A DNA stretch of 64,000 bases from a virus (Duplodnaviria; Caudoviricetes): IMG/VR virus record IMGVR_UViG_3300046615_000588, positions 37,396-101,395 of that record; one strand, written 5' to 3'. Below the pieces are notes generated by a model, which saw nothing but the letters and a program-made list of their open reading frames with translations, did not search any database and had not been told where the DNA came from. The position numbers were made by a program, and so were the translations under genes. Of this stretch, positions 2,717 to 46,306 are shown piece after piece. Numbering within the stretch: the stretch's first letter is position 1; every line of letters begins with the position of its first letter.

Positions 2717-5109
2717 CGCGCGGGCCTCAAGATGGTGTCGCCAGCCAGTGCTGGCCTGAAACGGCTATGGGCCTGCACCGATGCCGCTATCCCGACATGC
2801 GCACTGACAGCATGGCGCACCCTGATCCGGTCCACATCGATGCACCCCTCGTGCAGCACATATTCGGCGAGACTGCCGCTGACCGACTGCCCGGCCTGGC
2901 CGGTGCCAACCACGGCATCCACCCCGACAACGATCAACCCCTGTGCGCGCTGCGCCTGTGCCGTGGCCGCAATGCTATCGACCGCCACGGCGGCGCTGAC
3001 GATGACCGTCTGGCCCTGCCAGGTCTGCACTGTGCACGCCGCCGACAACTCGCCGCTGGCCGCGACGCTCTGGCTGGCCTGGAAGGTCTGCGCGCCCGGT
3101 CCGTCGTTGAGCGCAAGCAGGTCGCCGCGCATGGTTTGCGCCTGCCCGGTGACGGCCTGCCCATCACTGCCCACCTGGGCGCTGGCCGCCACCAGCTGTG
3201 CCTGCGCGGTGCCGCCACTGGCATCCACCGACAACGCCGCATCCGCGCTGACCGATTGGGCCTGACTGGTATTAACCTGGGCGCTGAATTCCTCCTGCCC
3301 CTGCGCCTGCACGCTCTGGCCTTGCGCGGTGCCGACCAGCGCCGCCGCGGCCACTTCGCCGCTGGCCAACACGGTTTGCCCTTGGCTGGTGGCCGCGCTG
3401 CTGTCGAGCACCTGCGCCGAGCTGGCCAGCGTGGTTTGCGCCTGACTGGTGCCGGCTATCGCGTCCACCGCAATCTGGCCATCCGCGCTGGCACTCTGCG
3501 CCTGGGCCGTGGCGCTCACGGCGTCCACGCCGACCGCGCCGCTGGCGGCCGCACTTTGCGCCTGACTGGTGGCCACCCCGGCGGCGTCGCCGTTCAATGC
3601 CGTGGCCGCGACACTCTGGCCCTGGCTGGTGCTGCCGCTGGCCGCCGCGTCCACGGCGGCGCTGGCCGAGCTGGTTTGACCCTGGCTGGTGGCTACGTCA
3701 AGGACCGCTTGCAACGCGCCGCTGGCGGCTACCGATTGCGCCTGACTGGTGGCCGCGACAACGTCCAGCGACGGCGCCACGCTGGCCAACACCGATTGCG
3801 CCTGGCTGGTGCCGACCACGGCGTCGTTCGCCGAGGCCATGCTGGCCGTCGTGCTTTGCGCCTGACTGCTGCTGCTGCTGGCGTCCACGCCCACGCTGCC
3901 GCTCGCCGCTACCGTTTGCGCCTGCGCCGTGGCGCTCGCCGTTGACGAGGTTTCCGCCAGCACGGCAACGCTCTGGCCCTGGCTGGTGGCGACACTGGCC
4001 AGCGCCTCCAGCGCCGCGTTGGCCGTCGTCGTTTGCGCCTGGGCACTGGCACACACGGCGTCCACGGCAGCCGCGCCGCTGGCCGCCACCGTCTGCGCTT
4101 GCGCGCTGCCAATGACGGCATCGACGGCGACAATCCCGCTGGCGGTCAGCGTTTGCCCTTGACTGGTGGCCACGCTGGCGGACACGTCCAGCGCGCCAGT
4201 GGCGGCGATTGATTGCGCCTGAGCGGTGCCGATGGCGGCTTCGGCCACGAGCGCACCAGCTGCAGACAGCGTTTGCGCCTGCGCGGTGGCGCTTGTGGCG
4301 TCCACACCAAGCACGGCACTGCCCGCCACCGTCTGACCCTGGCTGCTTGTCGCCGTGGCGTTGACCGCCAACAGCCCGCTTGCGCTCACACTCTGCGCCT
4401 GGCTGGTGGCCACCACGCAGGTATTGTCCGGCTCGACAGCGATGAACGGTTCACCCTTGAAACCGATATCAAGCGTGCTGGTGATGATGCCGTGCTTACT
4501 CGTGACCTGGATAAATGGCTCGCCAGCAAACGCCAGATCAAGGCTGGCCAGTTCGGCGGCGCTCTTGAGCGTGCCGGTGTACGCGGCGACCGACTGCGCC
4601 TGGCTGGTAGCAATAGCGCAGGTGTTGGCCGCCTCGACGGCGACGAATGGTTCGCCCTTGAAGCCAATATCAAGCGTGCTGGTGGTGACGCCCGCCTTGG
4701 CCGTCACCTGCGCGAACGGCTCGCCGCCAAACGCCAGGTCTAAGCTGGCCAACGCAAGCGCGCTCTTGAGCGTGCGCGTGCATGCGGCGACGGATTGCGA
4801 CGCCTGGCCGGTGGCCACCACGGCCACCACGCCGGTTGATCCGGTGGCCAGCACGGTCTGGCCCTGCTGCGTGCTGCCGCTGGCGGCCACACCGACCGCG
4901 CCGCTGGCCGTGACGCTTTGCCCCTGGCGCGTCGCCACGGTGCCATCAATACTGCCAAGGGCCGCCTCCACCGCGAGGAAGGGCTGGCCTTGATAGCCGC
5001 TGTCCAGACTGGTGGTGGTGATGCCGTTCTTACCCGTCACCTGGACAAATGGCGCACCGTTGAACGCCAGATCAAGCGCGGCAAGTTCCAGGGCGGTCTT
5101 GAGCGTCAT
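2713..5109 (-). CDS. Fibre shaft/adaptor protein: three ~48-aa N-terminal modules plus ~30 20-aa repeats
   Basis: (T/S)SQ(A/G)Q(S/T)VAASG repeats with 60-bp periodicity; modules at aa 2-49, 113-160 and 180-227. Confidence 0.8.
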   Translation of the reverse strand: MTLKTALELAALDLAFNGAPFVQVTGKNGITTTSLDSGYQGQPFLAVEAALGSIDGTVATRQGQSVTASGAVGVAASGSTQQGQTVLATGSTGVVAVVATGQASQSVAACTRTLKSALALASLDLAFGGEPFAQVTAKAGVTTSTLDIGFKGEPFVAVEAANTCAIATSQAQSVAAYTGTLKSAAELASLDLAFAGEPFIQVTSKHGIITSTLDIGFKGEPFIAVEPDNTCVVATSQAQSVSASGLLAVNATATSSQGQTVAGSAVLGVDATSATAQAQTLSAAGALVAEAAIGTAQAQSIAATGALDVSASVATSQGQTLTASGIVAVDAVIGSAQAQTVAASGAAAVDAVCASAQAQTTTANAALEALASVATSQGQSVAVLAETSSTASATAQAQTVAASGSVGVDASSSSSQAQSTTASMASANDAVVGTSQAQSVLASVAPSLDVVAATSQAQSVAASGALQAVLDVATSQGQTSSASAAVDAAASGSTSQGQSVAATALNGDAAGVATSQAQSAAASGAVGVDAVSATAQAQSASADGQIAVDAIAGTSQAQTTLASSAQVLDSSAATSQGQTVLASGEVAAAALVGTAQGQSVQAQGQEEFSAQVNTSQAQSVSADAALSVDASGGTAQAQLVAASAQVGSDGQAVTGQAQTMRGDLLALNDGPGAQTFQASQSVAASGELSAACTVQTWQGQTVIVSAAVAVDSIAATAQAQRAQGLIVVGVDAVVGTGQAGQSVSGSLAEYVLHEGCIDVDRIRVRHAVSAHVGIAASVQAHSRFRPALAGDTILRPAR
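2880..4420 (-). repeat. Degenerate 60-bp coding tandem repeat, ~26 units
   Basis: gctggcc...gcgcctgactggt recurs in register every 60 nt, clearest at 3361-3960. Confidence 0.85.
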
Positions 5110-5111
5110 GG

Positions 5112-7952
5112 CTATGCCTGGGTGATGGAGATATCGTCAATCCAGAAATTGTTGCTCGTGCCGACGCCATCATAGACTTGGAACAGCACCTCGACCACGC
5201 CAGCCTCGCTCGGTGTGAAGGTCAAATTGCTCGATTGGGTCCAGGTGTTGATCGTTGGCGCACAGGCCACTGACACATCGCTGGGCACACCGGCGATCTG
5301 GCCGCCCTGCACCAGCAGCTTGCCGTTGATGTTGGTGTTATCGCGCCGCGTCCAGATGGACAGCGTGACCAGATTGTTTGCACTTAACGCGATCTTGGCC
5401 ACCGACAGGGTGAGTGGATAGACCGCTGTCCGGCTGGTGGCGGTTGGGCGGAATTTCCAGGCGATCCCGCTGCCCGTGTGGCGTTGATCGGTGGCTGAGA
5501 TTATCGTGCCGCCATCCGTGGTGATCACATGGCTGGTCGCCGTGCCACCATCTTTTTGCGAGTAGAGGTAGGCATTAACGCCGCTGGTCAATGGGGCATA
5601 CGCGGTCGTGTCGGTCAGCGAGCTATTGAACAGGATCAGCCCCGCGCTGGCATACGCCCCGGCGCTGACATTCGACGCCGTGACCAGCCGCGAAATTTTT
5701 ACGGGGAAAACCGGGCCACTCTGCGTGTAGAGGCCGTATGCGCCGCTGTTCTTCGCGGTGAAGTCCTGCATCATGCCCTGGCTGGATCCGCCGCCGAGGC
5801 TGATGTTTTGCGAAATATTGCTGTAGGCGGACAGGGCGCGCGCCTGCATCATGGTCGAACTAAGCAGTATCCCCAATGTGTCGCCATTGTGCGCGGCGAT
5901 GCCGAGAAACGAACTCGGTCCGGCGCTACCACTTGTCCCGGCGGTTGCGATCCCGCTGCTATTGGTATTATTGGCGTGGCAATTCTTGACGATGCAATAA
6001 GTAAATGAATACAGGTTCGAGAACCCGGTGTAGCATCGGACGCTGTTGAGGTTGTCAAACACCAGGTACGACGAGGTGTTGGCGTTGAAGCCGCTGTTGA
6101 AATACGCATCCTGGCCGTCGATCCAGGTTTCCCCGGTCTGCGTGGACATATCGGTCGTGTTCCAGCCGCCGCTATAGGTGATCGGGCTGCCGGACGTGCC
6201 GCCTTCCTGAACAATATTGAACGCGGTAAAGGCGCTGACCATCGCCTGCTTGATGGTTTCCCGCTTGTAGGTGGCCACCGTTTCCGTGCTGCCGCCGTAG
6301 CCGCGCCCCGCATTGCCCAGCGTCTGCGGGCCGTTGTCCAGCTTGACGGTGGTGCCGTTGATCGACTGGATGCCGTACCACGTATCCTCCAGGTCGTCGC
6401 AGGTCCAGGTCAGCGCGCCATCGGTGACGGTCGCGCCGATCTCCAGCGGCCAGGTCGGCTCCGTGCTGCCGGAATTGCCACCGCCACCCGCCGTGACCTT
6501 GTAACGGTAGCCGTTGCGGTTCGGCGGCGTCGGCTTGCGCAGATCGTTGCTGGCGTAGGCGGTCGATGCGGTCCAGTTCAGATTCCACACCTTGCCGATC
6601 AGCGAGGTCAGTGAGAGCGAGTCGGCGCTGCTGGACGCCTTGCAGGCGATGATGTTGTCCACCTGGACCGTGACCGCCGCGATGTCCACGTCCTGGTACA
6701 GCGCCACCGACTGAATGGCGCTGTTCATGTTCGTACCGAGATCGACCGTGACCGGCAACCACACCGACCCTTGGTTGGTGGGTGGCAGCGGGATCGTATG
6801 CACCGAGGTCGCGCCAGCGGTGTCGGTGCACAGGCGCAGCGACAGCGTGTTGGCGGTGATGGCGGCGGTGGCGTACACCCAAAAACTAACCTGCTGATAC
6901 CCGGACAGATTCAACGTGCCGGTGGCGAAGTAGGCGCACAGGCCGGTGGTGAACGCCCCGGCGATCACATGCTTGGCCGACTTGGTGTTTTCCTTGAACT
7001 GCGAAGTGTCGGCGGTGCTGGTGACGTTGGCACTGGCCGTCCATGCTGTTTCGCAGTCGCTGATATTCAGGGTGACAGCCGACGCCAGCGTGATGGTCTT
7101 GCTGTTCTGCGTCCAGGTGGCGTTGCCGATCGATGTCGGATTGGTCGAGGACATGATGCGGATCGTGTCACCCGGCGCGGTGCGCGCAGCGGTCGCGCCA
7201 CTGGCGAAGGTCTTCCAGCGGGTGCCGAACGCTGCGCCCGAGACCACTGTGTTCAAATGCGCCAGCAACACAACCGAAGCGAACGAGGCGTCACCGGCAC
7301 CGACACTGTCAGGGAAGGCGGCCGTGGGGGCGGTGAACGCCCCGGCATAGCGCGCGACACCTTTGGTAACACGCACCTCGTCCACCCAGCCATCGATCTT
7401 GCGGATGCCACGATCATCATTGCCGATCACCAGTTGCGCGGTGTTATTGATAAAAGTGGAGCCGACCGTGGCTGACCCTTTGACCACGCCATCAACGTAG
7501 ACCCGCAACACGTTCGACGCATCCCTATCGGCGGCGACGTGATACCAGGTGTTGGCCGAGGGAGTCCAGGCCACTGGCGTACCCAGCAGGTCCGATCCGG
7601 TGGTCGAGTAGTAGAAAACAATATGCGTACTATCGTCCATTCCGAAGTACCAGCCGAACTGCGGGCTATTGCCAAATTGCGAAATGAAGGAACACGCGCC
7701 CACGTTGTTGAACCGCACCCAGCCTTCGACAGTGAACTGCCCGGCCCCGAACAGCCAGTCAGCGCTGTCGTCGGCGCTGATGCCGGAGGTGGAACTGGCA
7801 GTGCTCAGGTCCAGGCAGGAGCCGCCGAATTTACTTTGAGCGCTCGTATAGCCTGCCGAGCCGACTGCGTTCAGCATACGCGCCGTCGTCGAGCTATCAA
7901 CGGCGATCGCCGTGTCGCTGCCCCCCACCAAATCCATGTAAAAAGTGGCCAT
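5112..7952 (-). CDS. Receptor-binding/adhesin paralog 3 (946 aa) with inserted LamG/ConA-like domain and beta-helix region
   Basis: Shares MATFYxDLxGG N-terminus and DGVGTxNNFWIDDISIxQ C-terminus with neighbours; insert has FTVEGWVRF, WYHVA, YVDG and DEVRVTKGVARY LamG motifs. Confidence 0.8.
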   Translation of the reverse strand: MATFYMDLVGGSDTAIAVDSSTTARMLNAVGSAGYTSAQSKFGGSCLDLSTASSTSGISADDSADWLFGAGQFTVEGWVRFNNVGACSFISQFGNSPQFGWYFGMDDSTHIVFYYSTTGSDLLGTPVAWTPSANTWYHVAADRDASNVLRVYVDGVVKGSATVGSTFINNTAQLVIGNDDRGIRKIDGWVDEVRVTKGVARYAGAFTAPTAAFPDSVGAGDASFASVVLLAHLNTVVSGAAFGTRWKTFASGATAARTAPGDTIRIMSSTNPTSIGNATWTQNSKTITLASAVTLNISDCETAWTASANVTSTADTSQFKENTKSAKHVIAGAFTTGLCAYFATGTLNLSGYQQVSFWVYATAAITANTLSLRLCTDTAGATSVHTIPLPPTNQGSVWLPVTVDLGTNMNSAIQSVALYQDVDIAAVTVQVDNIIACKASSSADSLSLTSLIGKVWNLNWTASTAYASNDLRKPTPPNRNGYRYKVTAGGGGNSGSTEPTWPLEIGATVTDGALTWTCDDLEDTWYGIQSINGTTVKLDNGPQTLGNAGRGYGGSTETVATYKRETIKQAMVSAFTAFNIVQEGGTSGSPITYSGGWNTTDMSTQTGETWIDGQDAYFNSGFNANTSSYLVFDNLNSVRCYTGFSNLYSFTYCIVKNCHANNTNSSGIATAGTSGSAGPSSFLGIAAHNGDTLGILLSSTMMQARALSAYSNISQNISLGGGSSQGMMQDFTAKNSGAYGLYTQSGPVFPVKISRLVTASNVSAGAYASAGLILFNSSLTDTTAYAPLTSGVNAYLYSQKDGGTATSHVITTDGGTIISATDQRHTGSGIAWKFRPTATSRTAVYPLTLSVAKIALSANNLVTLSIWTRRDNTNINGKLLVQGGQIAGVPSDVSVACAPTINTWTQSSNLTFTPSEAGVVEVLFQVYDGVGTSNNFWIDDISITQA

Positions 7953-26774: not shown

Positions 26775-27260
26775 CCGATTACTACGGCTGGCATTCATTG
26801 CATACCGACAAAATCCGATTTCAACCAAACAGTTGTACTTCCATCGAAATGATACCGTTTGATACTGGTTGATACTATTTATAATCAATCTAACTCGTTC
26901 TGTATCACACGATTTTAAATACTACCGTTTCAATCACTTAGATTTCGTTTCGTTTTAAACCAAATTATTAGATACGGATAAAAAGTGATTCATTCGGTTT
27001 TATTCCCATCCGATGTATTCGGTTTTTATCCGTATCCTTTCCTTGTAAATACTTCGATTATCAACCTTATCGTTGCAATCCGTTTCGTTCGATTTGATAG
27101 ATTACGGTATGCAAACGTTTAGTTTTTATACATACAAAACCGTATCAGTACATACAAAACCGTAGCCAACAAATCCGATTAGAATATTTCTTTTCATTCC
27201 TTACGGTATCCCATGGTACAAGTTTTACTTGTGCGTTATACTGACCCTATTTCTGACAGG
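26775..27260. promoter_or_regulatory. AT-rich repeat-rich region upstream of parA (centromere and promoter candidate)
   Basis: Sharp GC drop; many WWCCGWW-like and GATAC units; TACATACAAAACCGTA twice near 27129-27163. Confidence 0.6.
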
Positions 27261-27268
27261 GAGGCGCT

Positions 27269-27946
27269 ATGGCGATGCTGGTCATCGGGGGGGTAAAGGG
27301 CGGCGTGGGCAAGAGTACGCTGGCGGAAAACGCCGTCGTCATGCGGGCGATCACGCTCGCAGGCCGCAAGAGGAAGGGGCGAAAGAAGCCGATCCTGCTG
27401 GTCGATGCCGACCCCACGCGCAAGGGCGTCAACAAGTTCCACTTGCGCCGCAAAGAGGCTGGCCATGAACCAGCCATCCAGTGCGAGCTAATGCTTGGCA
27501 ACGGCATCTACCATGACCTGCGCGACCGCCTGGAAGACTACGAGGACATCATCGTTGACTGCGGCGGCCACGACTCGCCCGAGATTAGGGGCGCGCTGAT
27601 GCTGGCCAACCAGTGGATCATCCCGACCCGGCCCAACCAGACCGACCTCGACTCGTTTGAGGCGCTAGAGGAACTGGCCGCGCTGATGCTGGCGACCAAC
27701 CCGACAATGCGCAACCGCGTCATGCTCAGCCAGGTGCGCGACCGCACCATCGACAAGAAACGCGCCGAATGGGAAACCGAACTGGCGCCGTTCCCGCTGT
27801 GCGGCGAGCTGATGACGGTCGGCACCACGATGCGCTCCACCTACGAGCTGACCCGAGGGTCGGGCCTGGCGGTGGTCGAATTTGCCGCCAAGCGCGAGAT
27901 CGCGCTGCGCGAAATGCAGCAGCTTAACCTGGAGATTTGGAAATGA
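27269..27946 (+). CDS. parA: ParA-family partition ATPase (short type Ib)
   Basis: Deviant Walker A KGGVGKST, LVDADP, IIVDCGG; no N-terminal HTH. Confidence 0.9.
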   Translation: MAMLVIGGVKGGVGKSTLAENAVVMRAITLAGRKRKGRKKPILLVDADPTRKGVNKFHLRRKEAGHEPAIQCELMLGNGIYHDLRDRLEDYEDIIVDCGGHDSPEIRGALMLANQWIIPTRPNQTDLDSFEALEELAALMLATNPTMRNRVMLSQVRDRTIDKKRAEWETELAPFPLCGELMTVGTTMRSTYELTRGSGLAVVEFAAKREIALREMQQLNLEIWK

Positions 27947-28730: not shown

Positions 28731-29572
28731 CCGACACCACCATCACGCCGCGCTACACCATCCTCGACGACGGCACGGCGATCAAGTGCCACTACTGCAA
28801 CCTGGTCAGCCACAACATCGACGACGTGCGCCAGCGCTATTGTGGCAACTGCATGCGCTTCCACGAAGACGAGCCGCTGCCGATCCCGCCCCACATCAAA
28901 GCCATCGCCGAGAACATAGCGATGACGGCGCGCACGGAGATTTGCCAGGGCAGGGAGTTGGCGCCACAGATTTTCGTGCTGAATACCGCCAAGGGGCTGA
29001 TGACGTCGCCGACGATGCGCATGGGCGCCCCGGAGGAACGCGAACGCATGGCGCAGGAAACCCGGCTGCTGGCCGACGACATGGATGCCGACATTGTCAT
29101 CCTGCTGTCGGAGGCGTGGGCGCAGGCGGTGGGCTCGCCGGCGAAAATGGCGGCGCTGCGGGCGCAGTACGGCGGCCGCATCGCCAACATGCCGGACCGG
29201 CAGGAAATCCTGCTGCTGACGGTTGAAACGGTCGATCACTACTGGCAGGGCAAGGCACAGATCACCGGCACCGGCCTCGACCGGCGCTGCGGCGATGTGC
29301 GGTACGTGCTGGGCGACGACGAACACGGCCGCTTCACGCACTTCCTGGCCAGCCCCGCCGACAAGGCCCAGCTCGCCACGACGCTGGCCAACGTGCGTGC
29401 GATCCTCGATGCCAAGGGCGTCAACCCGGACGCCAAGGTCAATTACGATGGCACCAAGCGCGGGCGGCTCGACATTTTGCGCAGCCTGATGATCAAGAAC
29501 GGCCAGTTCGGGACCACCGACTTGCGCCTGCAGCTGGTCGCCGGCTTCCTGGCGTCGCTGGCCGAGGCGTGA
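28727..29572 (+). CDS. Hypothetical protein with N-terminal zinc ribbon
   Basis: CHYC...YCGNC. Confidence 0.7.
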   Translation: MTDTTITPRYTILDDGTAIKCHYCNLVSHNIDDVRQRYCGNCMRFHEDEPLPIPPHIKAIAENIAMTARTEICQGRELAPQIFVLNTAKGLMTSPTMRMGAPEERERMAQETRLLADDMDADIVILLSEAWAQAVGSPAKMAALRAQYGGRIANMPDRQEILLLTVETVDHYWQGKAQITGTGLDRRCGDVRYVLGDDEHGRFTHFLASPADKAQLATTLANVRAILDAKGVNPDAKVNYDGTKRGRLDILRSLMIKNGQFGTTDLRLQLVAGFLASLAEA

Positions 29573-29823
29573 TGGGCCAGGTGACTGCGCACATGGACAA
29601 GAACAACGGGCTGGGCCAGACCATCAAGGCGCTGCGCAAGCTGCGCGGCATGACCCAGGCCCAGCTGGCCGAGCGGGCCGGGGTCGAGCGCACCAGCATC
29701 ACCAACATCGAGCGCGGCAACCAGACCTTGACCGTCGTGACGATCAACGCGATCGCCGCCGCGCTCGGCTACCAGGTGCGCGTGCAGTTCGTGCTGGCCA
29801 AGCCCACGGAGTCATGCGCATGA
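29572..29823 (+). CDS. XRE-family HTH regulator
   Basis: IKALRKLRGMTQAQLAERAGVERTSITNIERG. Confidence 0.85.
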   Translation: MGQVTAHMDKNNGLGQTIKALRKLRGMTQAQLAERAGVERTSITNIERGNQTLTVVTINAIAAALGYQVRVQFVLAKPTESCA

Positions 29824-30008: not shown

Positions 30009-30024
30009 TTTTTGCATAACAAAT

Positions 30025-30052
30025 GTTTCGCATAATCAACATTATGTCAAAT
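30025..30052 (+). other. dif: dif-like XerC/XerD recombination site
   Basis: GTTTCGCATAA-TCAACA-TTATGTCAAAT fits the 11-6-11 dif consensus; intergenic and AT-rich. Confidence 0.85.
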
Positions 30053-30068
30053 TGATAATATTATATTT

Positions 30069-30332
30069 ATGATAACTGATGACTTGGATGATGTCCCCTT
30101 GCCGCCGGATGGCCACCCCGACTTCGAGCGGCCCATCACCATTGCCATGATCCACTCGGCGAACCTGTACGCCACCTGGTCGCAGCCGACGGTCGGCTGC
30201 GGCGAGTTCCACATCAGCCTGAACAAGGACGGCTCGATCACGGCCGACACCGAAATGATGGGCCGCGAGTGGCTGCGCCGCGCGCTGCACGCCGCCGTCG
30301 ATGTGCTGGTGGACCAGGCGGCGATCGAATGA
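30069..30332 (+). CDS. Hypothetical protein
   Basis: ORF with native codon usage. Confidence 0.6.
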   Translation: MITDDLDDVPLPPDGHPDFERPITIAMIHSANLYATWSQPTVGCGEFHISLNKDGSITADTEMMGREWLRRALHAAVDVLVDQAAIE

Positions 30333-30592
30333 CGCCGGACCCCGACCTGGCTGCCGGCGACATCATGCAGCTCAACCCCGACCCGGACGTCACGCGCAAC
30401 GCCATGTTCTGCGCCTGCATGTTCGTCGTCACCGAGCCGAAGCAGTTTGGCGCGCAGGGCTACGTGCAGGCGCTGGGCGAGAACGGCGAGCGCGGCGGCC
30501 AGGCTTACTACCGTGCCACCTGGGACGAAATGGAACCGACCGGCGGGCGCGCGGAATGGGTCCGCTCACACGGAGAAAACGAAAATGACTGA
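30329..30592 (+). CDS. Phage hypothetical protein (SH3-like beta)
   Basis: GDIMQL...VVTEPK.FG.QGYV pattern; ATGA overlap. Confidence 0.7.
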   Translation: MTPDPDLAAGDIMQLNPDPDVTRNAMFCACMFVVTEPKQFGAQGYVQALGENGERGGQAYYRATWDEMEPTGGRAEWVRSHGENEND

Positions 30593-31100
30593 CCACGACA
30601 CCGTATCCGGCCTCTGGAAGACGCGCATCACCGAGGCCAGCGCAGCACTCGCAAATATGATCGAGGCGCCGCACCTGGCCGGCTCGCGCGCGGTGATCGA
30701 ACAGTTCTTTGGCGAGGTCGAGCAGCTGGCCGCGGAAAGCGAGGACGACGACACCCTGCGCGACCGGCTTGCCGCTCTGCTGACCGGCGTGGCCGCTGGT
30801 CTGAAAGGGCCGCCGCGGCCGGACACCTTGCACGACTGGTCCGACCTGCCCGCCAAAGCCGAGGCGGCCCGCAGCCGGATCGCCGAGCTGGAAGCGCAGC
30901 TCAAGGCCACCAAGGAACACACCAGTGGCTTCGCGTGCTGGTGGGCGATGGTCGAGGCGCAGGAAGAACTTGGCGGCACGCCGATCAAGGACGACGCGAC
31001 CGTCCTGTACTTCATGGGGTCCGGCGCATCGACCGCCGTGCAGGCGCACGAAATACGCCGCATGCTCGGCACCATCTACGGATTGAAAGGATCGAAATGA
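30585..31100 (+). CDS. Hypothetical protein
   Basis: GGAG SD; HDWSDLP motif. Confidence 0.7.
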   Translation: MTDHDTVSGLWKTRITEASAALANMIEAPHLAGSRAVIEQFFGEVEQLAAESEDDDTLRDRLAALLTGVAAGLKGPPRPDTLHDWSDLPAKAEAARSRIAELEAQLKATKEHTSGFACWWAMVEAQEELGGTPIKDDATVLYFMGSGASTAVQAHEIRRMLGTIYGLKGSK

Positions 31101-31312
31101 AATTGTGGGACCTGTCCAGGGGCAGCTACTTCAAGATTACTGGCGGGCTGCGCGTGCCGCTGGGTGCGCCGTCGGTTGACGTTGACACCGTCTACTGGCT
31201 GGGCAACCTGGACGGCATGTACTCGTACTGCACCGCGCCCGACGGCACCGTCGTGCATGTGTCGTGCGACGCCGATGTCATCCCGCAACCGAACCCGAAG
31301 GAACCAACTTGA
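31097..31312 (+). CDS. Hypothetical protein
   Basis: NLDGMYSYC motif; ATGA overlap. Confidence 0.7.
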   Translation: MKLWDLSRGSYFKITGGLRVPLGAPSVDVDTVYWLGNLDGMYSYCTAPDGTVVHVSCDADVIPQPNPKEPT

Positions 31313-31698
31313 CATTCCGCGTCCCCGAAAAATTCCGCCTGCGCACCGGCCCCTATGCCACCTCCGAAGCCGACGGCAACAACGGCGTGTTTTGGGTGCT
31401 GCTGCCGCGCAGCCAGAAGCTCAAGGTGCTTGCCTCCGACGGCGGCATGCCGGGCGAACGGGCGTGGGAGCACGTTTCGGTGTCGCGCAAAGACAGGTGC
31501 CCAACATGGGAAGAAATGTGTATCGTCAAATCGCTATTTTGGGACGACGACGACTGCGTGGTGCAGTACCACCCTCCCCGCGCTGATTGGATATCAAATC
31601 ATACCTATTGCTTGCACATGTGGCGCCCGGTCGGCATCGAGCTGCCGCGCCCGCCGTCGATGATGGTCGGCATCGCCGACCTGGGGACGCTGGTATGA
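31309..31698 (+). CDS. Conserved phage protein (WEHVSVS...PTWEEM...HxYCLHxW family)
   Basis: Recognisable motif set; AAGGA SD and TTG start. Confidence 0.8.
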   Translation: MTFRVPEKFRLRTGPYATSEADGNNGVFWVLLPRSQKLKVLASDGGMPGERAWEHVSVSRKDRCPTWEEMCIVKSLFWDDDDCVVQYHPPRADWISNHTYCLHMWRPVGIELPRPPSMMVGIADLGTLV

Positions 31699-31871
31699 AC
31701 GTGAAGCGCTGGTGCCTCGTCGGCGTCATCCTCAACCTGGGCTGCGCCGTCAACGACCTGTGCAACCCGGCCGGCTGGTGGTCGTACCTGTTCGGCGCGC
31801 TGTCACTTGGCTGCGCCGGCGTGTGCGCGTGGGCGTGGATCGCCGTCAGCTTACCCAAGGAGTCACCATGA
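31695..31871 (+). CDS. Small membrane protein
   Basis: Two hydrophobic helices; coupled on both sides. Confidence 0.6.
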   Translation: MNVKRWCLVGVILNLGCAVNDLCNPAGWWSYLFGALSLGCAGVCAWAWIAVSLPKESP

Positions 31872-32089
31872 ACGCCTCGCTTGCGCGCCGGCTGCGGTTC
31901 ATCGACTTCCAGCTCGACCACTACGGCAGTATCAATCGGGCTGCCCTGATGGACTATTTCGGCCTTAGCCCGGCGCAGGCGTCACGCGATATCAAGGCAT
32001 ACAAAGAGGCCGCACCCGGCAACATGACCTTCGACGAAGGCTCGAAAATCTACCTTCGCAGCCACGCTTACACCAGGAGCTTCCCATGA
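31868..32089 (+). CDS. Stand-alone CapW-like winged HTH without WYL domain, copy 1
   Basis: RLRFIDF.L...G.INR..LMDYFG.S..QASRD...Y...APGN..FD...K.Y; AAGGAG SD; 73 aa. Confidence 0.8.
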   Translation: MNASLARRLRFIDFQLDHYGSINRAALMDYFGLSPAQASRDIKAYKEAAPGNMTFDEGSKIYLRSHAYTRSFP

Positions 32090-32319
32090 CCGGCCCGCGC
32101 AACGCCGCCCAGCAGGCCCGCCTGCGCTTCATCGACTTCCTGCTCGACCGCTTCGGCATGGTGAACCGCACCGACATTACCGACTACTACGGCCTGTCGG
32201 AGCCGCAGGCATCGCTCGACTTGCGCGCCTATAACGAACAGGCACCGGCTAACATGCAGTTCGACAAAACGGACAGGTGCTACCGCCGCAGCGCCACCTT
32301 CACCAGGAGATTCCCATGA
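32086..32319 (+). CDS. Stand-alone CapW-like winged HTH without WYL domain, copy 2
   Basis: Paralog of copy 1; AGGAG SD; 77 aa. Confidence 0.8.
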   Translation: MTGPRNAAQQARLRFIDFLLDRFGMVNRTDITDYYGLSEPQASLDLRAYNEQAPANMQFDKTDRCYRRSATFTRRFP

Positions 32320-32651
32320 GCGACGACGATTCCCCCTTTGCCATCGGCTTCTTCGGCCCGGCCCACATGATGAAGGACTACGAGCGCCAAGTCGCGCCGC
32401 CGATCGGACAGGCCTGCCTGCTGTGCGAGGAAGCAATCGCCGAGAGTGACATCGGCACCATCAACCTGGCCGGCCAAGTGGCGCATTACGAGTGCGAAAT
32501 GCGCCTGGGCATCGGCTCGGTGGGCCACCAGTTGCGGCGCTGCAGCTGCTTCGGCGGCACCGAAGAAGACCCGCCCGGCATGTCCCGGCGCCAGGCCGCG
32601 CAAGCCGCGTGCGCGCTGTGGCTCCGCAACCAAGCGGCCGCCGCAAAATGA
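32316..32651 (+). CDS. Cys/His-rich hypothetical protein
   Basis: CLLC, HYEC, GH...CSC; AGGAG SD. Confidence 0.7.
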   Translation: MSDDDSPFAIGFFGPAHMMKDYERQVAPPIGQACLLCEEAIAESDIGTINLAGQVAHYECEMRLGIGSVGHQLRRCSCFGGTEEDPPGMSRRQAAQAACALWLRNQAAAAK

Positions 32652-32780
32652 GTCGCTGGCGGGGGAACCATTCCGACCCAACCGCGCGCGTCAAGCTGCT
32701 GCGCGGTGAAGCGGCACGCCAGGCGCAACAGGACTACCAACACATAGCTACACCAATCACACTAACCGAAGGACACACAC

Positions 32781-33026
32781 ATGCAAGTCGATTACCTCGC
32801 CCACTACCGCAAACTACGCGCCGAGATCGCCCGGCTGGAGGACGAGGCGCTGGACGCGCAACGGATGGCGCGCACCCAGGCCACCCAGCAAATACTGGCC
32901 CTGATGCAGGACGCCGGCATGACCCTGGCCGACCTTGAAGCGAAGCCGCGCGCGCCGTGGGGATCGAAAACACGCGGCGGTGTGCCAACGGCCGCCTTGG
33001 CAAATACGAATGAAAGCGCGGCATGA
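32781..33026 (+). CDS. Truncated H-NS-like protein (oligomerisation domain only)
   Basis: N-terminal coiled coil ending M...GMTLADL; lacks the TWxGxG DNA-binding motif. Confidence 0.65.
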   Translation: MQVDYLAHYRKLRAEIARLEDEALDAQRMARTQATQQILALMQDAGMTLADLEAKPRAPWGSKTRGGVPTAALANTNESAA

Positions 33027-33325
33027 GTACCGTCAGTGAAGTACAGCAAATTCAGAAGCAGATCGCCGACCTGCAAGCACGCGCGGCCCTGCTCATCATG
33101 GAGGGGCGCGACGACGCCATCGCGCAGATCAAGACCATGCTGGCCGACTACAGCATCGGCGCCAGCGACCTCGGCCTGGTGCTGAAAGCGCCGCCGCGCA
33201 TACGCCCGCCAAAGTTCCGTGACCCGGATTCGGGCGCCACTTGGACAGGCCAGGGAGTGGCGCCGAAGTGGATCGAAGGGAAGGACCGCGAGGCGTTCCG
33301 CATCGTCGAGGTGCCAGCCGCATGA
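33023..33325 (+). CDS. hns: H-NS family nucleoid protein
   Basis: PPKFRDPDSGATWTGQGVAPKWI. Confidence 0.85.
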   Translation: MSTVSEVQQIQKQIADLQARAALLIMEGRDDAIAQIKTMLADYSIGASDLGLVLKAPPRIRPPKFRDPDSGATWTGQGVAPKWIEGKDREAFRIVEVPAA

Positions 33326-33672
33326 ACAAGCCGCTGTGCGAGCTAACCCACGCGGAAGCGCTGGCGGCGCTGCAGGCGGCCGAGAGCAAAATCACCGAGC
33401 TGACGGCCGCGAAGGCGCCGGCGGCCCGGCGTGCGCGCAGCCTGCGCCGACCAGATGACGCCAATGCGCTGCCGCTGCCGCAGCTGTATCACGTCATCAT
33501 GAGCGAGATCAGCAGGCTGATGAGCCTGCCCGAAGCGGCGCTTACGCCAGCCGAGGAAGCGCTGCTCGATGCGCTGGTTGACGTGGTGATGGTGTACGAA
33601 CAGAGCCACTTGCCCGGCTGGCTGTTCCCCGCAGTTGCGGCTTCACCACCAGAGGATGACGCTAGAGGGTGA
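33322..33672 (+). CDS. Hypothetical protein with a HigA N-terminus-like segment
   Basis: ISRLM...TPAEEALLDALVDVVMVYEQSHLP; no HTH. Confidence 0.55.
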   Translation: MNKPLCELTHAEALAALQAAESKITELTAAKAPAARRARSLRRPDDANALPLPQLYHVIMSEISRLMSLPEAALTPAEEALLDALVDVVMVYEQSHLPGWLFPAVAASPPEDDARG

Positions 33673-44870: not shown

Positions 44871-45236
44871 GTGAGTAAGCCAAAGCAGGGCCAGATCGTG
44901 CGCATGTTCCGCGCCGCGATCCCGACGTTCGAGTGTGTGCCGGGGTGCACCGACTGCTGCGGCCCGGTGCCGGCCAGCGAATGGGAACTGAAACGCCTAC
45001 CCAGGCTGGACCCGGCCACGCGCGTCGCCTGCTACACGGCCGATGGACTGTCCTGCCCGCACAAGGGGCCGCTTGGGTGCATGGTGTACGAGGAACGTCC
45101 GCTGGTGTGCCGCCTGTTCGGCACGGTTGAGAAACTGCCCTGCCCGCACGGCCGGCGCCCGGCAAAGCTGCTCGATCCACAGGTCGAGCGCGAAATCCTG
45201 CGCTACACCAGCGGCGTGAAGCACGAACTACTATAG
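44871..45236 (+). CDS. YkgJ-family cysteine-cluster protein, second copy
   Basis: CVPGCTDCCG...CPH...GCMVYEERPLVCRLFG; GGAGG SD. Confidence 0.85.
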   Translation: MSKPKQGQIVRMFRAAIPTFECVPGCTDCCGPVPASEWELKRLPRLDPATRVACYTADGLSCPHKGPLGCMVYEERPLVCRLFGTVEKLPCPHGRRPAKLLDPQVEREILRYTSGVKHELL

Positions 45237-46027: not shown

Positions 46028-46306
46028 ATGGAACAACAAGCACCAGCAACCCAGGCCAACAACCCCGGCGAGATCGACACCTTGGCCGAGATCGATGCCG
46101 TGGGCGCAACGCTGCTCGCGCTGCACGACAAGATCGACGCCGAATGCAACGACAACTACCAGGCGCTGGGCGGCTTTAACGCCAGCACCACGCCAGAGCT
46201 GGACACCGCCTACGCCGCCTGCGAAGCGATCAGCGAGGCCAAGCGCAACCTGCAAACCGGCCTGATGTGGCTCCGGCGCGCTGTGGTGAAACCTTCCGGC
46301 TTCTAA
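46028..46306 (+). CDS. Acb2-like anti-CBASS nucleotide sponge (divergent)
   Basis: EIDxxxxIxxxG helix and C-terminal AKRNLQTGLMWLRRAVVKPSGF; 92 aa; AGGAG SD. Confidence 0.7.
   Translation: MEQQAPATQANNPGEIDTLAEIDAVGATLLALHDKIDAECNDNYQALGGFNASTTPELDTAYAACEAISEAKRNLQTGLMWLRRAVVKPSGF

Follow-up and report, generated by a model that had tools for sequence, protein, structure and literature searches.

Regulators of the CapW/BrxR type control CBASS (cyclic-oligonucleotide-based antiphage signalling), BREX (bacteriophage exclusion), restriction-modification and other defence islands in many bacteria, and induced expression of the systems under their control matters both in the blocking of prophage induction and in priming against subsequent attacks. 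Both CapW and BrxR form domain-swapped homodimers in which the linker helices, the WYL domain and the WCX domain carry dimerisation (bioRxiv 10.1101/2022.01.04.474952). They bind promoter palindromes of ~20–25 bp as repressors, and single-stranded DNA (ssDNA) releases them through the WYL domain (PMC11662680, PMC9122589, PMC9122601): once on WYL, the ssDNA moves the two winged helices apart and the palindromic operator is freed. Here we describe two adjacent genes, A and B, that encode the winged helix-turn-helix (wHTH) of such regulators and none of their other parts. They lie in a 64,000-nucleotide stretch of viral DNA (the window), which corresponds to bases 37396–101395 of the 101,395-bp IMG/VR virus record IMGVR_UViG_3300046615_000588. 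That A and B are intact, folded, sensor-less DNA-binding heads of the CapW/BrxR type is well supported by the sequence and structure comparisons below.

Two coupled winged helices that end at the domain boundary

Gene A (31868..32089, + strand) encodes 73 aa and gene B (32086..32319, + strand) 77 aa, each a single-domain winged helix of the CapW/BrxR type; A is an accessory copy that close relatives do not carry, and B is the copy conserved in related phages. The Shine-Dalgarno sequence of A, AAGGAG (31857..31862, + strand), lies 5 nt 5′ of the ATG at 31868, while that of B, AGGAG (32075..32079, + strand), lies 6 nt upstream of the start of B, within the final codons of A. Both proteins close on F-P followed by TGA, and ATGA start/stop overlaps chain four genes together, namely a 58-aa membrane gene, A, B and a 111-aa Cys-rich gene. 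The GC content at third codon positions (GC3), 0.77 for A and 0.87 for B, is as expected of coding sequence in this genome. The two proteins are 54% identical over 72 residues (E 7e-29), and the ACCAGGAG-N-TTCCCATGA junction at the end of A recurs at the end of B (32303–32319). An earlier reading of the window made from its letters (hereafter the sequence-only reading) had described two tandem, translationally coupled paralogs, each with a Shine-Dalgarno site and a stop after F-P, and the coordinates, the ATGA overlap and the 54% identity confirm that description.

Comparison with PDB sequences by phmmer places both proteins on the N-terminal part of structurally characterized regulators. B matches the CapW chains of P. 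aeruginosa (7TB5, 4e-14), R. leguminosarum (9C5G, 1.6e-9) and S. maltophilia (7TB6, 7e-9), followed by BrxR of E. fergusonii (7QFZ, 8e-5) and of Acinetobacter (7T8K, 0.05). A returns the same match list, with 7TB5 at 6e-12 and 7TB6 at 2e-10. The alignments cover the first ~70–90 residues of chains of ~300 residues and run up to the last residue of A or B. AlphaFold2 models both as an H-H-H-E-E winged helix, that is, three helices and a two-stranded wing, with a mean predicted local distance difference test score (pLDDT) of 94 for B and 97 for A. In Foldseek, the kind of structural comparison that the sequence-only reading had suggested, CapW and BrxR rank first, with template modelling (TM) scores of 0.83–0.92 and root-mean-square deviations (rmsd) of 0.5–1.1 Å, and unrelated winged helices reach TM 0.5–0.6; superposed on P. 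aeruginosa CapW, the model of B gives TM 0.89 and rmsd 0.6 Å. PF26109 (WHD_BrxR) appears in the precomputed annotation of B and its homologues. Scans of A and B against Pfam (in a set without PF26109), PHROGs, NCBIfam and PADLOC gave nothing significant.

The residues through which CapW contacts DNA are retained. DNA binding by S. maltophilia CapW is lost without R32 and likewise without the triple S42/Q45/S47 (bioRxiv 10.1101/2022.01.04.474952), and these positions align to the identical residues R28/S38/Q41/S43 in B and R24/S34/Q37/S39 in A. The recognition helix reads SPAQASRD-IK in A, SEPQASLD-LR in B and SVPQASLD in P. aeruginosa CapW. Because A and B differ at variable positions of this helix, they probably read different DNA sites. 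Taken with the phmmer matches and the AlphaFold2 models, the kept contact residues bear out the proposed match of both genes to the N-terminal winged helix of CapW-type WYL regulators.

Everything beyond the wHTH is missing. A and B stop at its boundary, with no linker helices for a domain-swapped dimer and no WCX. A search for the WYL domain (PF13280) that was positive in 9 of 14 control genomes returned nothing at E <= 1 from the full 101-kb record, and a linker-WYL-WCX profile built from 41 full-length relatives reaches a best six-frame E of 1.5 in the phage. The wHTH profile, run on the six frames of the same phage, returns exactly two copies. The lack of a WYL or dimerisation domain, reported by the sequence-only reading for the two genes, is hence established across the complete phage record.

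The tandem arrangement is not shared by the closest relatives. A phage of ~88% nucleotide identity (L003) and a more distant one (L018) have the same gene order, consisting of a DUF7694 gene, a small membrane gene, the winged helix, the Cys-rich gene and two H-NS-like genes; in both, a B-type gene is the only winged helix and directly follows the membrane gene, with A absent. B is 95% identical in L003 and 75% identical in L018 (P0004), and the small sample of changes that separates it from its L003 orthologue comprises 4 synonymous and 4 non-synonymous substitutions in 231 nt. The closest match of A is a gene of another contig (L004, 62%) and not B. Given its absence from L003 and L018, its greater similarity to the L004 gene and the junction repeated after A and B, A looks like an accessory cassette inserted at, or lost from, a conserved boundary between genes. 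As close relatives carry B alone, an obligatory A–B heterodimer is excluded for the family, as judged from gene content.

The stand-alone family and its relation to full-length regulators

An exhaustive HMMER search over 1.8 billion representative sequences found 659 relatives at E <= 1e-3, and the family composition described here is drawn from the best 150 of these together with close homologues. Among the best 150 of the 659, ~50 are proteins of 72–115 aa that end at F-x-R-x-[FW]-P, 41 are full-length regulators (~300 aa), and the rest are mostly fragments of full-length genes on short contigs. A and B have the form typical of stand-alone members, with 70–90 residues that end at this motif and continue into no further domain. 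In a quick maximum-likelihood tree, the full-length sequences and nearly all fragments make up one clan, and the stand-alone sequences, A and B included, lie outside it; this clan of 106 rows holds all 41 full-length rows. The labels change 7 times on the tree versus 45.6 times in shuffles, and the separating branch has a Shimodaira–Hasegawa-like approximate likelihood ratio test (SH-aLRT) value of 86.

The two groups also differ in their residues. Six positions that the full-length proteins strongly conserve (W, R, W, E/D, D and P, in or close to helix 1) hold other residues in the stand-alone group, which has a conserved set of its own at five positions, three of which overlap the six. At alignment columns 16, 21, 25, 70 and 76 this clan has R, L, Y/F, R/K and R where full-length proteins have E, R, E/D, A and P; B matches at all five and A at four, with Q at column 21. 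The four DNA-contact residues, by comparison, are >70% conserved in stand-alone and full-length groups alike. The residues lost in the stand-alone group would have faced the linker and the WYL domain, and the basic residues gained may add DNA contacts. A clan of their own and their own signature residues argue, with moderate confidence, that the stand-alone proteins form an old, selected, phage- or plasmid-borne branch without WYL and are not recent truncations of host genes.

All of the stand-alone contexts examined are phage- or plasmid-like, with arrays of small genes. They include nine IMG/VR contigs, metagenomic contigs with integrases, primases, Mor, CI-type repressors or ParA, and Stenotrophomonas phage Sonora, in which the stand-alone copy gp088 sits in a long chain of coupled small genes. 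Among predicted viral structures, a 97-aa protein of Pantoea phage LIET2 is the sole strong match. Matches in the plasmid database PLSDB are full-length WYL regulators, and the four inspected adjoin CBASS-type or other defence-like genes. Two scans of representative bacterial genomes gave no close relative in the first and two contigs of metagenome-assembled genomes in the second. A weak similarity (40% over 47 aa) between the N-terminal extension of one relative (P0012) and a 171-aa protein encoded upstream in the window was not used.

Two natural fusions extend the range of architectures. P0010 (L017, 4863–5300) is a 145-aa protein in which an XRE/CI-type helix-turn-helix is joined to WHD_BrxR, in a phage with integrases, primase and Mor. 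P0043 (L021, 6001–6588) has 195 aa with two tandem WHD_BrxR domains and no WYL, and its gene is divergent from TraL/TraE/TrbI genes; it amounts to a natural “covalent dimer” of the stand-alone domain, carried in a conjugative element. Both fusions agree with a DNA-binding regulator whose two DNA-reading heads work in concert.

The sequence-only reading knew of no description of an anti-defence mechanism of this sort. This holds insofar as our literature search found no paper on WYL-less phage copies of the domain, but the domain itself already has a Pfam model, PF26109 WHD_BrxR. What is new here is the separate clan, its signature residues, the tandem pair as an add-on, the two fusions, the partition/H-NS setting and a conserved DNA element.

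Operon, conserved palindrome and genome

A and B lie within a co-directional run of small phage genes on the + strand. Some 11 small genes, among them A, B and two H-NS-like genes, follow an AT-rich promoter gap and extend to 33672. Matches to sigma-70-like promoters (30036..30073, + strand), from a consensus scan only, could drive the genes from 30069 to 33672, and no convincing + strand terminator-like site was found over that interval.

The AT-rich gap ahead of this operon contains a palindrome, GCATAAT-CAAC-ATTATGT (30030..30047, no strand assigned), as a candidate operator. It occurs once in the genome, overlaps the predicted −35 elements and sits inside a 36-nt island that is 100% identical in L003, with flanks that diverge. 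Two further contigs, related to this phage by distant protein similarity only (27–67% identical), retain the element: L020 keeps 27 of 29 nt and L009 keeps the 15-mer TTCGCATAATCAACA. Over the DNA searched, chance would give 6e-4 exact matches of that length. In both contigs the element sits between a parA-led block and a block with a winged-helix gene. On the strength of this recurrence in distant lineages and the low chance expectation, we take the sequence at 30030–30047 to be a real conserved cis-element. It has the form TTTC-G/T-CATAAT-C/T-AACATTATGTCAAATT across the window (30010–30075), L003 (560–625), L020 (~2990–3035) and L009 (4395–4420). The winged helix is among the few proteins common to the three lineages (this phage, L020 and L009), and A and the L009 protein share an unusual start of the recognition helix, PAQA-x-RD.

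Full-length relatives show the expected layout, with the regulator divergent from defence genes and a palindrome between them. In Burkholderiaceae, the intergenic DNA between capW and CBASS (L024, 2395–2425; L013, 5820–5845) contains a near-perfect palindrome, ATACGCATA-N7-TATGCGTAT, which is a likely CapW operator not encountered in the literature consulted. A GCATA half-site that the phage palindrome shares with the Burkholderiaceae CapW operators was considered and dropped as a general rule. A cluster test over 14 loci gave no enrichment, and full-length proteins with near-identical recognition helices have apparently different operators.

The genes that flank the pair belong to the same module. 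Upstream, the 58-aa hydrophobic, small membrane protein (31695..31871, + strand) is ATGA-coupled to A and is 76% identical in L003 and L018. Downstream, the 111-aa Cys-rich protein (32316..32651, + strand) is ATGA-coupled to B and has no family match; its identity is 88% in L003, 69% in L018 and 67% in L020, so that it is better conserved than the winged helix of the same module. The possibility that this gene is a split-off linker or WYL remnant was rejected, as it gives no match to the post-wHTH profile. Two H-NS-like genes (32781..33325, + strand) follow in the same block as A and B. One has an N-terminal oligomerisation-type region only, a weak match (Histone_HNS_N, E 2e-4, 21.5 bits, below the Pfam cut-off), and the other the C-terminal DNA-binding domain (Histone_HNS, E 5e-13). 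The H-NS-like pair recurs after the winged-helix gene in both L003 and L018; in L004 and L020 an H-NS gene is close by.

Further upstream, a ParA-like gene (27269–27946) is followed by several small genes, including one for an XRE-type helix-turn-helix protein (29569–29823). Directly 5′ of the ParA-like gene lies a stretch of ~480 bp (26780–27260) that is AT-rich in a genome of 65% GC and full of short repeats, for example ATACAAAACCGTA twice; it probably represents the iterons or centromere of a plasmid prophage. The phage looks temperate and plasmid-like, the ParA-like gene being among the grounds for this view. The 101,395-bp record has direct terminal repeats of 127 bp and no DNA match to cultured phages or plasmids. 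Its helicase is closest to that of an Acidovorax phage (58%), and an H-NS atlas search places it in Pseudomonadota, with no finer placement.

An Acb2/Tad1-hairpin family gene encoding 92 aa (46028..46306, + strand), from the family of anti-CBASS sponges, lies 14 kb from A and B. Its presence had been noted in the sequence-only reading and is borne out by PF24729 at 28.1 bits, just over the cut-off of 27; the protein also matches PHROG 717. No recognised anti-defence gene adjoins A or B. Proteins with the CxxCxxCC domain (PF03692) recur in phages that have a stand-alone winged helix, in some loci two genes 3′ of it, and are found at 44871–45236 in the window, at 1193–1795 and 7107–7466 in L014 and at 6970–7572 in L020.

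Targets, role and comparison with known regulators

We consider it probable that A and B are constitutive, sequence-specific DNA-binding regulators. Each would use helix 3 and the wing to bind a specific site on DNA and would act as a transcription regulator, most simply a repressor, made from a small-gene block that adjoins the genes for partition and H-NS in a temperate, plasmid-like phage. With the ssDNA-sensing WYL domain missing, a DNA-damage or infection signal could not release binding, and the two proteins would therefore be non-inducible. Several points weigh against this interpretation. CapW and BrxR bind as dimers via parts that A and B do not have, and a lone wHTH may bind weakly unless it self-associates. 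The tree that sets the stand-alone branch apart is short (79 columns) and comes from a quick search with modest branch support, and the query skews the sample of relatives. No recurrent operator-like inverted repeat emerged from scans of the region and the complete genome, and the palindrome, lying as it does just downstream of the parA-led block, might just as well be a site for partition or IHF, or ordinary promoter sequence.

If A and B do regulate, the phage's own promoters head the candidate targets at rather less than even odds; host operators of the CapW/BrxR type are a possible but less probable target, and the balance falls to other host or mobile-element sites. We tentatively favour a regulator internal to the phage, in which B (and A) would control its own early or maintenance operon, for example via the palindrome at 30030–30047, and would have no role in host defence. 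The palindrome is single-copy, lies on predicted −35 elements in an island invariant in L003, and is kept in L020 and L009 before the winged-helix block; the PAQA-x-RD start is common to A and the L009 protein, and the double-domain P0043 stands divergent from its tra operon as a local regulator would. However, L003 keeps the palindrome without A, the other small proteins of the module are shared among these phages too, and GCATA half-site clusters are not enriched in other stand-alone loci. The element also comes after a parA-led block, a position open to partition sites, P1 parS being an example, and by our own reading its L009 copy fits the IHF consensus WATCAANNNNTTR. The same conserved site in the phage's own regulatory DNA counts against a second interpretation, put forward by the sequence-only reading and regarded by us as doubtful, namely that A, B or both silence defence by occupying the operators of host CapW/BrxR-controlled CBASS, BREX or other operons and, being ligand-blind, holding them repressed at times when the host repressor would come off upon DNA damage or infection, the paralogues serving two operator types. 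The contact residues and a recognition helix close to that of CapW (SEPQASLD in B, SVPQASLD in P. aeruginosa) speak for silencing, as do the closest full-length relatives, which are divergent from CBASS genes across the ATACGCATA-N7-TATGCGTAT palindrome. The variable presence of A resembles that of accessory host-interaction genes, and the Acb2/Tad1-family gene suggests that the phage probably meets CBASS. Uninducible CapW WYL mutants strongly compromise CBASS protection against lambda prophage induction (PMC11662680), which is what a ligand-blind competitor expressed from a temperate phage would achieve. Nevertheless, defence against a first lytic infection does not require derepression (bioRxiv 10.1101/2022.01.04.474952), and competition with a dimeric host repressor is questionable for proteins that have no dimerising domains. 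Moreover, the stand-alone clan is old and distinct from host regulators, and nothing points to repeated capture or to mimicry matched to the host; the copy in Sonora, a Stenotrophomonas phage, resembles S. maltophilia CapW no more closely than P. aeruginosa CapW. That the phage contains no full operator of the CapW type is neutral for silencing. In its specific form, with A and B as ligand-blind competitive repressors on host CapW/BrxR defence operators and the two copies widening the range of operators or hosts, we judge the proposal unlikely.

Two further explanations have much less weight. A free winged helix might dock on host CapW or BrxR and alter regulation without binding DNA, and in CapW the wHTH does pack against the WYL domain of the other protomer (bioRxiv 10.1101/2022.01.04.474952); yet the stand-alone clan has replaced W, R, W, E/D, D and P, the full-length-specific residues that would face the linker and WYL, while keeping its DNA contacts, which makes such interference very improbable. 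Least credible, and disfavoured, is that A and B are decaying, functionless remnants of a captured regulator. The truncated architecture would agree with decay and nothing else does: the frames are intact, with Shine-Dalgarno sites and high GC3, the models reach pLDDT 94–97, dozens of diverse stand-alone homologues share the same C-terminal motif end, and the equal numbers of synonymous and non-synonymous changes between B and its L003 orthologue, although a small sample, are consistent with constraint.

The alternatives differ in what they would mean. For a mobile element that is to keep defence operons off, no simpler means can be imagined than a DNA-binding head deaf to the inducing signal; were A and B silencers, they would represent a new class of counter-defence that acts at transcription, not at defence proteins or signals, and that works by mimicry of the system's own transcription factor. 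If instead they regulate phage genes, the family shows where the DNA-binding module of defence regulators circulates and offers a minimal, monomer-sized model of DNA reading by this winged helix. In either case, the stand-alone family is common in uncultured phages.

Among known regulators of similar size, A and B resemble the Aca proteins and Cro in being small DNA-binding proteins among early or accessory phage genes, where Aca proteins and Cro act as promoter repressors. They differ in belonging to an unrelated fold family and in not lying beside a recognised anti-defence gene, and WYL, BrxR, CapW and winged-helix types all go unmentioned in a survey of Aca families. CapW is far closer: the winged-helix domain is the same (36–43% identity, rmsd 0.5–0.8 Å, TM 0.86–0.89), as are the R, S, Q and S contacts and the C-terminal F-x-x-x-F-P domain boundary. 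In contrast to CapW, A and B have no linker helices, WYL or WCX, and thus no domain-swapped dimer and no ssDNA sensing; the residues of full-length proteins in and near helix 1 are swapped for the stand-alone set, and the genes sit inside a phage small-gene operon, whereas capW is divergent from its defence operon. BrxR (PDB 7QFZ, 7T8K and 7T8L) belongs to the same family (PF26109, TM 0.83–0.92), and conservation extends to the K/R and Y of the wing with which Acinetobacter BrxR contacts DNA, but identity falls to 28–30%, the SRQQ base-contact motif of the Acinetobacter protein is replaced by a CapW-like S-x-P-Q-A-S, and WYL and WCX are again missing. The closest counterparts are the stand-alone WHD_BrxR proteins of Sonora (gp088), LIET2 and the IMG/VR contigs, which have the same length, the same end point and the same phage setting of small coupled genes; the other phages examined carry one copy each, whereas this phage carries two divergent copies in tandem.

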